5,680 bases of DNA from a virus. Taxonomy: Duplodnaviria > Heunggongvirae > Uroviricota > Caudoviricetes. The position numbers and the translations under genes were made by a program. Positions 2,200 through 4,053 of this stretch are shown piece after piece (positions within the stretch are counted from its first letter, which is position 1; each line of letters opens with the position of its first letter). A model generated the notes under the pieces. That model ran no database searches and had not been told where the DNA came from. It saw only the letters and a list, made by a program, of their open reading frames with translations. The DNA is taken from the IMG/VR virus record IMGVR_UViG_2684622669_000004, positions 1 to 5,680 of that record. The stretch is one strand, 5' to 3'.

Positions 2200-4053
2200 A
2201 TGTCGATTAAACGTTATGATTTGGTCAGGGCTGCCTCGCCGTCAGATCTGGCGGAAAAACTGACACAAAAGCTGAAAGAGGGCTGGCAGCCATACGGCGG
2301 ACCGGTTGCCATTACGCCGTACACACTGATGCAGGCGGTGGCTATTGAAGGAGATCCACAGGTCGGCCCTTCATCTGAGCCGGACTGGTTCTACGTGGTT
2401 GTGCTTGCCGGACAGTCCAACGGCATGGCCTACGGTGAAGGGCTTCCGTTGCCGGATTCTTACGATGCTCCGGATCCGCGCATTAAACAGCTGGCGCGCC
2501 GCAGCACGGTAACTCCGGGTGGAGAGAGTTGTACGTATAACGACATCATCCCGGCTGACCACTGTCTGCATGATGTGCAGGATATGAGTACGCTGAATCA
2601 TCCGAGGGCTGACCTGAGCAAAGGTCAGTATGGCTGTGTGGGGCAGGGACTTCATATTGCCAAAAAACTGCTCCCGTATATCCCGAATAATGCGGGGATC
2701 CTGCTGGTACCATGCTGTCGTGGTGGTTCGGCATTCACCCAGGGCGCGGAGGGGACATTCAGTGCGGACACGGGGGCCAGCCAGGATTCGGCGCGCTGGG
2801 GTGTGGGTAAACCGTTATATCAGGACCTGATTGTGCGCACCAAAGCTGCATTACAGAAGAACCAGAAAAATGTGTTGCTGGCGGTGTGTTGGATGCAGGG
2901 AGAGTTTGACATGAGCGCCGCCACCTACGCACAGCAACCTGCGCTGTTTACAGCCATGCTGAAGCAGTTTCGTGCTGACCTCACTGTGTTTAACGCGCAG
3001 TGTCATGGTGGCAGTGCTGCAGATGTGCCGTGGATTTGTGGTGACACGACGTATTACTGGAAAAACACCTACGGCACGCAGTACAACACCATTTACGGGG
3101 CGTACAAAAACAGGGAGAGTGAGGGCGTTTATTTTGTGCCGTTCATGACAGACGGTAACGGCGTCAATACCGCCACTAATGCGCCGGCAGAAGATCCGGA
3201 TATTCCGGCATCAGGATATTACGGTGCGGCATCGAGAACGAATGGAAACCAGGTATCATCAAACCGCCCGACACATTTCAGTTCATGGGCGCGCAGGAGC
3301 ATTATTCCGGATCGCCTGGCAACCGCTATTCTGAACGCAGCCGGGCGCACCTCAGCCTTCATCAGTGGTAAGGCACCGGAAATCAACCCCTCGCCCGGCG
3401 GCGATACGCCATCGGGGCCGTCTGATAGCGAAACATCCGTCCGCACAGTCTCCCTGCTGCCGGCAGACGGAGAGGCTGCTACGCAGGGCTGGACTATTAA
3501 AGATGGCGGAATTCAGCTGGCAGATGGTGTATTTAAGATCACCAAGCAGAGCAATAAAACCTGGTCCCTGGCGCATCCGGTGGATGACGCAATTACCCTG
3601 CTGACACAGGGCGGCAGGCTGACCTGTAAGTTCCGCCTGTCTGGAGCTCTGACCAATAATCAGTTCGGGCTGGGGATTTATCTGTATACGGACGCTCCCG
3701 TTCCTGATGGTGTGGCGATGACGGGTACCGGTAATCCGTTCCTGATGTCGTACTTCACTCAGACCACTGACGGCAGAGTGAATCTGATGCATCACAGGAA
3801 AGCCGGAAACACGAAGCTGGGGGAGTTCGGCGATTACGGTAACGACTGGCAGACGCTGGAGCTGGTGTTCACCGCCGGCAGTGCCACGGTTACTCCGAAA
3901 CTGAATGGAGTGGCTGGCCCGGCATTCCAGGTCATAAAAGACAGTCTGACACTGGGACTGAATGCGCTGACGCTGACGGATGTTACAAAAAATGCAGCGT
4001 ATGGCGTTGAGATAGAAAGTCTGATGCTGGAGATAAATGCACCGGCAGCATAA
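2200..4053 (+). CDS. nanS-p: Prophage-encoded sialate O-acetylesterase NanS-p-like protein (DUF1737 N-terminal domain + SASA/SGNH esterase domain + C-terminal beta-rich putative carbohydrate-binding domain), ~617 aa
   Basis: N-terminus MSIKRYDLVRAASPSDLAEKL… resembles DUF1737. The esterase core FYVVVLAGQSNGMAYGEGLPLPD… carries the GQSN nucleophile motif (Ser codon 2416-2418) of NanS/YjhS-type 9-O-acetyl-sialate esterases. Position between Q and the lysis genes matches nanS-p in Stx and related lambdoid prophages. Start chosen at ATG 2200 (GAGAG 7 nt upstream); the ORF track starts at in-frame GTG 2182. Stop TAA 4051-4053. Confidence 0.8.
   Translation: MSIKRYDLVRAASPSDLAEKLTQKLKEGWQPYGGPVAITPYTLMQAVAIEGDPQVGPSSEPDWFYVVVLAGQSNGMAYGEGLPLPDSYDAPDPRIKQLARRSTVTPGGESCTYNDIIPADHCLHDVQDMSTLNHPRADLSKGQYGCVGQGLHIAKKLLPYIPNNAGILLVPCCRGGSAFTQGAEGTFSADTGASQDSARWGVGKPLYQDLIVRTKAALQKNQKNVLLAVCWMQGEFDMSAATYAQQPALFTAMLKQFRADLTVFNAQCHGGSAADVPWICGDTTYYWKNTYGTQYNTIYGAYKNRESEGVYFVPFMTDGNGVNTATNAPAEDPDIPASGYYGAASRTNGNQVSSNRPTHFSSWARRSIIPDRLATAILNAAGRTSAFISGKAPEINPSPGGDTPSGPSDSETSVRTVSLLPADGEAATQGWTIKDGGIQLADGVFKITKQSNKTWSLAHPVDDAITLLTQGGRLTCKFRLSGALTNNQFGLGIYLYTDAPVPDGVAMTGTGNPFLMSYFTQTTDGRVNLMHHRKAGNTKLGEFGDYGNDWQTLELVFTAGSATVTPKLNGVAGPAFQVIKDSLTLGLNALTLTDVTKNAAYGVEIESLMLEINAPAA

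Follow-up and report, generated by a model that had tools for sequence, protein, structure and literature searches.

NanS-p-type sialate O-acetylesterase gene of an stx-negative Escherichia albertii prophage and its DUF1737 domain as a possible capsid adaptor

What is a sialate O-acetylesterase gene of the NanS-p type for when it lies in the late region of a prophage without Shiga toxin (stx) genes: does it only serve the lysogenic bacterium, or does it also serve the phage particle? Here, we examine this question for the nanS-p gene of a 5,680-nucleotide (nt) stretch of viral DNA (Caudoviricetes; IMG/VR record IMGVR_UViG_2684622669_000004, positions 1 to 5,680), hereafter the window, which is the entire draft contig BBWB01000065.1 of assembly GCA_001515025.1. 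An initial annotation, made from the sequence alone, had presented the gene as a host-fitness moron at the position of stx in Shiga toxin (Stx) phages. Our analysis makes it probable that the gene is an intact member of the NanS-p family of sialate O-acetylesterases in the late operon of a lambda-like, stx-negative Escherichia albertii prophage, with late expression and substrate chemistry predicted from homologues and gene arrangement. For the window itself, this confirms a routine annotation: nanS-p is an ordinary and already catalogued member of a well-studied family, its gene arrangement is common and published, and in many Escherichia prophages, having NanS-p without stx is normal. What goes beyond the initial annotation is an association, across 18 loci, between the subtype of the N-terminal DUF1737 domain and the capsid family of the phage, which suggests that this domain might be a swappable capsid adaptor.

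The nanS-p gene and its product

The listed open reading frame (ORF) extends from 2182 to 4053 on the plus strand and has an upstream GTG start. All homologues start at ATG 2200 (M-S/T/A-I/F-K-H/R-Y-D...), and a GAGAGA Shine-Dalgarno-like run precedes this codon; therefore, the length of 617 amino acids (aa) given in the initial annotation is correct. An exact-sequence look-up retrieved the same protein as RefSeq WP_059240265.1 ('SASA family carbohydrate esterase [Escherichia albertii]'), whose 90%-identity cluster contains 13,211 members. A scan of genome contigs for relatives of the esterase found seven loci, which belong to E. albertii and Escherichia sp. or encode single-domain relatives in Proteus and in a Bacillota metagenome-assembled genome.

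Three Pfam matches, all exceeding the curated cut-offs, were obtained with the 617-aa protein: DUF1737 (PF08410, residues 4-49, E=5.7e-15), SASA (PF03629, residues 66-262, E=7e-12) and DUF6645 (PF20350, residues 468-578, E=4e-18). A search of solved structures matched residues 60-379 to NanS/YjhS (3pt5, E=3.2e-119) and residues 421-614 to the C-terminal domain of NanS-p (6yp6, E=1e-29). These matches bear out the architecture that had been read from the sequence, i.e., DUF1737, a SASA esterase domain with a GQSN motif (residues 71-74, nt 2410-2421) and a beta-rich C-terminal domain. With AlphaFold2 (AF2) and an alignment of 24 homologues, only the full protein's C-terminal domain was modelled confidently, as a beta-rich fold with a predicted local distance difference test score (pLDDT) of ~80-90; the whole model had a mean pLDDT of 59 and a predicted template modelling score (pTM) of 0.40. 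In NanS, Ser19 and His301 are catalytic, Gln18 forms the oxyanion hole and a catalytic Asp is absent (PMC9063846). The 3pt5 alignment places Ser73, His359 and Gln72 of the window protein at these positions (codons of Gln72-Ser73 at nt 2413-2418 and of His359 at nt 3274-3276), and G71, Q72, S73, N74 and H359 are invariant in the 24-sequence alignment, in which identities range from 56 to 98%. Both the similarity to NanS and NanS-p and the catalytic Ser and His, which the initial annotation had left to be checked, were thus found.

All seven NanS-p alleles of EDL933 and five of O104:H4 that have been tested are active esterases, which allowed growth on the 9-O-acetylated sialic acid Neu5,9Ac2 and de-O-acetylated mucin glycans (PMC8065619). 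By analogy with such homologues, the enzyme of the window would act on sialic acids, both free and bound to mucin, by removing 9-O-acetyl (and also di- and tri-O-acetyl) groups, its C-terminal domain would hold it on the glycan, and the freed N-acetylneuraminic acid (Neu5Ac) may become usable by surviving lysogens. The N-terminus of the protein is not hydrophobic and inspection revealed no signal peptide; because of this absence, the enzyme would be expected to exit the cell at holin/endolysin lysis.

Several points weigh against a firmer statement about the gene. Esterase activity of the window protein is predicted from conserved residues and tested homologues, and the AF2 model is too poor for active-site geometry, the DUF1737 fold or a fold search. 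The closest alleles placed in characterised phage types (those of Stx1a phages and phage 434) are 91-95% identical to the whole protein, and the best-studied 933W/phi24B type is about 55% identical. Finally, the late promoter pR' (Table 1) is a putative assignment, made from conservation and inspection.

DUF1737 subtypes and phage head families

The NanS-p homologue of phage phi24B, gp84, has been identified by electron cryomicroscopy and proteomics as an abundant capsid-decoration protein of the virion; its DUF1737 hexamers plug into the centres of the hexons of the T=9 capsid, with a Tyr42 loop as the anchor, and the protein is cleaved after about residue 54-57 beside an SISSP motif (bioRxiv 10.64898/2026.04.10.717836). 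In our alignment, the N-terminus of the VT2-Sakai protein has the same features (Tyr42, Gly54 and SISSP). We typed the second half of DUF1737 together with the head module in every retrievable related locus; the head module was recognised from tblastn searches with capsid and portal reference proteins, from Pfam matches, or from how the record was annotated or classified. In all 18 phage and prophage loci, P2-like ones included, the DUF1737 subtype agreed with the capsid family.

Subtype A/A' (…PVA[IV]TP[YN][TI]L[MV]QA…) occurred together with lambda gpE in five loci (the window lineage, 434, Stx1_8100, PhiR12_2 and a Citrobacter braakii prophage) and with an S78-protease/HK97-capsid fusion in seven (Stx1_EH1995, Stx2_EH2246, Stx2c_JNE082642, Stx1a_1602, phi330, Stx2a_WGPS6 and the metagenomic locus L036). 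Subtype B (ALISTAGYGAEFIQ) was found with the T=9 heads of Sepvirinae in three loci (VT2-Sakai, Stx2-86 and vB_EcoS_P22), subtype C (PFSSYTDDGAALIQ) with a ClpP/Phage_capsid_4 fusion in one (Stx2_KH16-043), and subtype D (MTSKNFALITAM…PGTPWYLMQAM) with P2 gpN in two P2-like myovirus prophages. The window lineage was counted as gpE from its Nu1, gpA, gpW and lambda-family portal genes; its contigs end before the capsid gene. Two longer contigs with the identical protein (L005/L006) continue into Rz, KilA-N and these four genes, which make up a lambda-type head module. Three records stood outside the comparison, namely P0054 (no record), L033 (which ends before the head genes) and L018, which is degraded, lacks the head genes and provides no counter-example. 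The L018 segment (20001-31237) is from a degraded Stx2a prophage (Stx2a_JNE122536) in which nanS-p is frameshifted into ORFs of 268 and 369 aa; it carries an insertion sequence (IS) transposase gene at 25789-26679, and terminase, portal and capsid genes are absent before a lambda-type tape-measure gene and gpJ.

The esterase and C-terminal types assort independently of these DUF1737/capsid groups. Stx2-86 combines a subtype B N-terminus with a window-like C-terminal domain (86%), and a VT2-like C-terminal domain (97-98%) is found in four alleles of subtype A, with Stx2c and Stx2_EH2246 (98%) among the A/VT2-like combinations. The P2-borne protein P0022 has an N-terminus that is 30% identical to that of the window protein, but its esterase domain, second linker and C-terminal domain reach 83-88% identity. 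Downstream of nanS-p lie the head genes, and the end of the gene that encodes DUF1737 is the end farther from them. A single crossover inside the gene would therefore tie the C-terminal end to the head type, which is the opposite of what is observed. The match found between N-terminus and head is the expected outcome of selection for a capsid-binding module that fits the capsid. Independent variants of DUF1737, SASA and the C-terminal domain were catalogued by Pascal et al. (2023) without relating them to capsids, and our literature search found no paper within the searchable library that relates DUF1737 variants to capsids.

It is a serious possibility, although somewhat short of likely, that the DUF1737 domain of the window protein serves as a capsid adaptor by which the enzyme docks on hexons of a lambda-type head, as in phi24B gp84. 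If this is true, the protein would count equally as an enzyme carried by the virion and as a host-fitness factor. More tentatively still, DUF1737 may in general be a modular and exchangeable capsid adaptor, and the E. albertii and phage 434 proteins may be mucin-modifying enzymes displayed on a T=7 lambda-type capsid and not fitness morons. An esterase body moving between head types (gpE, HK97-like fusion, T=9 Sepvirinae, ClpP-capsid_4 and P2 gpN) would then gain the matching DUF1737 subtype. Such enzymes would be displayed on the virions of many lambdoid and P2-like phages, and NanS-p would represent a widespread phage 'adherence-to-mucus' device. So far, the prevailing view of NanS-p is that it helps lysogens to grow on mucin sialic acids; a phage-centred role, such as mucus adherence or penetration, would have to be added to this view.

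The main rival is a pure lysogenic-conversion gene (a moron), i.e., a soluble enzyme that helps the bacterial population alone, with no virion role for DUF1737 in the lambda-head lineage. We consider it quite conceivable, if on balance doubtful. NanS-p alleles enable lysogens to grow on Neu5,9Ac2 and mucin (PMC8065619), and the details of subtype A differ from those of phi24B gp84. The N-terminal helix of the window protein (residues 1-33) is 79% identical to the VT2-Sakai/phi24B type; the anchor region (residues 34-52), which lacks 3 residues, is 23-26% identical, with some dependence on the alignment. The counterpart of the phi24B/VT2 anchor loop with its Tyr42 'tooth' (STAGYGAEF) is ITP---YTLMQ, in which this geometry is missing, and the first linker (VGPSSEPDW) is 11 residues shorter and has no SISSP cleavage motif. 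The head genes of the window lineage are lambda-type and not those of the T=9 Sepvirinae capsid. Moreover, subtype A is common to two unrelated capsid-protein families, which is hard to square with a tight lock-and-key fit, and capsid binding in the virion has been demonstrated for subtype B alone, on a T=9 podovirus capsid (bioRxiv 10.64898/2026.04.10.717836). The 18 loci are also few, hand-picked and phylogenetically non-independent. The points on the anchor loop, the linker, the two capsid families, subtype B and the 18 loci weigh against a capsid adaptor in the window, and those on growth, the Tyr42 loop, the SISSP motif, the two capsid families and subtype B speak for the moron. On the other hand, a simple sigma-70 consensus scan of the plus strand at 1866-2199, which weak or non-sigma-70 sites could escape, found no promoter of nanS-p's own, and the gene lies inside the late operon; hence, the esterase would be made mainly in cells near lysis. 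Among the closely related subtype-A alleles that were compared, conservation of the second half of DUF1737 is 79-100%, and the domain is exchanged precisely at changes of capsid family, even into P2-like phages in which the gene lies among structural genes. This would be unexpected for a functionless domain. Of the host-fitness moron in the initial annotation, the growth benefit known from homologues stands; the lack of a detected promoter, the late-operon embedding and the capsid-decorating role of the phi24B homologue count against it, and the label 'moron' is doubtful and at best half the story.

Two further explanations are much less probable than a capsid adaptor or a moron. An esterase that aids phage adsorption by deacetylating bacterial O-antigen or capsule, like tailspike deacetylases, was raised as an open possibility in a review (PMC8065619) and would be compatible with a virion-borne location. 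We regard it as improbable, considering that chromosomal NanS, an enzyme acting on 9-O-acetyl sialic acid, is highly similar to the catalytic domain (E=3e-119), that tested alleles act on sialic acids and mucin (PMC8065619), and that the phi24B protein is located on capsid faces and not on the tail (bioRxiv 10.64898/2026.04.10.717836). A decaying, non-functional prophage remnant would be in line with the frameshifted copies of some related prophages, such as L018 with its two fragments and deleted head genes, and with the window being a short draft contig. However, the ORF is intact and of full length, its catalytic residues are conserved, and at least 10 contigs carry exactly this protein beside complete lysis and packaging genes, which makes a remnant highly improbable.

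Late-operon context of nanS-p

The genes of the window are, in order, RusA (cut by the contig end), an 82-type Q, TerB, DUF3927, the esterase, a P21-type holin, DUF1327/YdfR and a lysozyme that runs off the contig end (Table 1); gene calls and Pfam confirmed that nanS-p lies between Q and the lysis genes. The Q protein shares 62% identity with its Q82-like counterpart in phage 434. Relatives of the TerB-family protein are annotated as TciA/TerB-like in phages PPyecE_EH1910 and JLK-2012, and those of the DUF3927 protein as tciB in phage JLK-2012 and phage 434. In the 'TerB-like pair' of the initial annotation, one member is indeed of the TerB family, whereas the second is a small DUF3927 membrane protein.

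Table 1. Features of the window with their positions, strands and supporting evidence
Feature	Position	Strand	Evidence
Late antiterminator Q, phage-82 type	343-1032	+	PF06323 E=1.4e-84; same gene call on identical contig L008
Putative late promoter pR' (-35 TTGCAA 1016-1021, 17-nt spacer, -10 TACATT 1039-1044)	1016-1044	+	Inspection
Promoter-proximal intrinsic terminator (tR'-like)	1095-1125	+	9-bp stem and T run; terminator scan
TerB-family protein (tciA-like), 143 aa, in stx slot	1270-1701	+	PF05099 E=4e-16
DUF3927 small membrane protein (tciB-like), 55 aa	1698-1865	+	PF13064 E=4e-17
STnc100-family (PasD-related) small RNA (sRNA) gene directly upstream of nanS-p	1870-2056	+	Rfam RF02076
Intrinsic terminator ~100 nt upstream of nanS-p	2081-2106	+	8-bp stem, 7 GC pairs, T7; terminator scan
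nanS-p, 617-aa sialate O-acetylesterase	2200-4053	+	ORF call, Pfam, solved-structure matches, exact RefSeq sequence
DUF1737 domain, residues 1-52, subtype A (…PVAITPYTLMQA…), putative capsid adaptor	2200-2355	+	Pfam, VT2-Sakai alignment, subtype/capsid comparison
SGNH/SASA esterase domain, residues 63-380	2386-3339	+	3pt5 alignment, codons checked
C-terminal beta-sandwich (lectin-like) domain, DUF6645, residues 421-617	3460-4050	+	6yp6 match, Pfam, AF2
Hairpin directly after nanS-p stop, minus-strand terminator	4061-4090	-	11 pairs, 8 GC, T run on minus strand
Structured spacer, candidate PasA/PasC-type sRNA	4196-4300	+	Intrinsic terminator 4264-4290 and T run
Class II (P21-type) holin S	4346-4552	+	PF04971 E=1e-32
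YdfR/DUF1327 protein, long 183-aa variant	4557-5108	+	PF07041 E=6e-42
Endolysin (lysozyme) start, off contig end	5428-5680	+	PF00959 gene calls on identical contig L008 and L005/L006; translation checked

With Stx1A/B and Stx2A/B as queries, tblastn gave only short matches in the window (E>0.3), in agreement with the absence of stx claimed initially. In an Stx1a phage, stx1AB is followed by the esterase gene, and homology to the window resumes at 1885, 95 nt past the stx1B stop. Therefore, the TerB/DUF3927 module and stx are alternative cargo of the same slot, as had been proposed. In 452 complete E. coli genomes, most of them O157:H7, a region with the gene order of the window matches at least 80% of its length at ~91% identity. 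RusA and TerB have been described as conserved neighbours of the esterase-PasA-holin-lysozyme block and this stx-less order as the most common PasA context, and less than 3% of chromosomal copies adjoin stx (bioRxiv 10.64898/2026.05.13.724894). EDL933 has been reported to contain seven or more functional prophage nanS-p alleles (PMC8065619). In view of the 452 E. coli genomes, phage 434 and the stx-less arrangement in the PasA preprint, the absence of stx is a common state and no anomaly, contrary to the weight first given to it.

The putative pR' (TTGCAA-N17-TAxAxT) is kept at the equivalent site after Q in phage 434 and in loci L003 and L004; it was missed by a consensus promoter scan, which also gave no plus-strand candidate ahead of the STnc100 region. 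The terminator at 1095-1125 aligns with one annotated just past Q in phage 434. An Rfam Leu_leader match at 1028-1121 was dismissed (24 bits versus a gathering score of 50, E=0.09), as it had picked up the terminator hairpin. The STnc100 match to RF02076 covers the full model length with 116.4 bits (gathering score 47, E=8e-26) and is located between tciB and the terminator at 2081-2106; a 2026 preprint relates STnc100 to PasD and positions it upstream of esterase genes. This block is also the conserved point at which Stx1-phage homology resumes after stx1B. The sequence TTGATT-N15-TATTAA at 1862-1888 was dropped as a promoter because of its poor spacing and its location inside the Rfam match. 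The terminator at 2081-2106 is conserved in 434, HB6 and O157 prophages and annotated in phage 434 ~85 nt before its esterase gene.

On the other side of the gene, the hairpin at 4061-4090 would terminate antisense transcription coming from the lysis side, and an equivalent is annotated in phage 434. The spacer at 4196-4300 folds with a minimum free energy of -41.4 kcal/mol (z=-2.3). Since PasA and PasC have been located between esterase and holin genes (literature including bioRxiv 10.64898/2026.05.13.724894), it is a candidate PasA/PasC-type sRNA by position and neighbours. Most simply, and for the most part by analogy, nanS-p can be taken as a gene of the late operon that is expressed only with antitermination by Q: transcription from pR' would reach it only when Q permits read-through of the terminators at 1095-1125 and 2081-2106, i.e., on induction. 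The nanS-p transcripts of homologues rise on induction (PMC10462455; PMC8065619), and the induction-dependent expression suggested initially fits both these data and the architecture.

Several other differences among related loci were noticed. No tRNA genes were found in the window; in O157 prophages that share the gene order, tRNA-Ile, tRNA-Arg and tRNA-Arg genes (ileZ-argN-argO-like) lie between Q and terB (L003 4033-4667 versus 1033-1269 of the window), and E. coli CFSAN004176, like the window, has no tRNA genes there. The Q-terB spacer contains a G11 homopolymer at 1176-1186, which is G8 in the 95%-identical CFSAN004176 locus; this may be a length-variable tract or a draft-assembly error. 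A 467-bp segment at 4893-5359 is absent from the O157, Stx1 and PPyecE loci and lengthens YdfR/DUF1327 from ~114 to 183 aa. It contains an antisense ORF of 86 aa (5056-5316, minus strand) with no Pfam match. With at least 80% coverage, this form is present in 282 E. coli genomes, many of them 100% identical (e.g., O111:H11), and it also occurs in phage PhiR12_2. An insertion of a mobile element was rejected, as the segment is a common allelic form of the ydfR region; many E. coli genomes carry it at 100% identity, with ordinary gene annotations. As a whole, the window is mosaic: 1-2020 is 95% identical to CFSAN004176, nanS-p reaches 92-94% identity with several lineages, and 4850-5400 matches O111:H11-type prophages at 100%. 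This illustrates how freely late-region modules are exchanged between prophages of E. albertii and of E. coli.

Comparison with known systems

The NanS-p proteins of enterohaemorrhagic E. coli (EHEC), such as z1466 of 933W, the EDL933 and O104:H4 alleles and vb_24B_21/gp84 of phi24B, have the same three domains and catalytic motifs as the window protein, and their genes have the same late-operon place between Q (or stx) and the holin gene, with the same flanking sRNA genes. The esterase domain of the window protein is ~70% identical to the VT2-Sakai/933W type. Unlike in EHEC, the host is E. albertii and neither stx nor tRNA genes lie upstream. Compared with the 933W/phi24B type, identity in the C-terminal domain is only ~31-36%, a value that varies with the alignment, and the head of the prophage is of the lambda type, not of the T=9 podovirus type.

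Chromosomal NanS (YjhS, 3pt5) has an SGNH type II esterase core that aligns over 320 residues with the catalytic equivalents, but its 337-aa chain matches only residues 60-379 and lacks the DUF1737 and C-terminal domains. Chromosomal NanS is exported and encoded in the nanCMS sialic-acid operon, not in a prophage. With its extra N- and C-terminal domains, non-hydrophobic N-terminus and prophage context, the window protein is distinct from it. Counterparts are also found in the P2-like myovirus prophages, whose NanS-p-like esterases (P0022 and P0045) have a highly divergent DUF1737 domain (30-38% identity to the window). In the P2-type late operon, their genes are flanked by the lysis genes on one side and the tail genes gpR/gpS on the other, and the capsid is P2 gpN (L031 10001-11875 for P0022, with the window-like body described above; L032 10001-11932 for P0045, with 63-80% identity in the esterase and C-terminal domains).

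A closely similar characterised system is that of phage 434. Its SASA esterase gp71 (OL657226) is 93-95% identical to the window protein over the full length and has the same subtype-A DUF1737, and the two loci share an 82-type Q, DUF3927/TciB upstream, terminators flanking the gene, a class II holin and lambda-type head genes. They differ in that another membrane protein replaces TerB in phage 434 and a signal-arrest-release (SAR) endolysin directly follows the holin, without YdfR. With this near-identical allele, a capsid adaptor role of DUF1737 is directly testable in phage 434.

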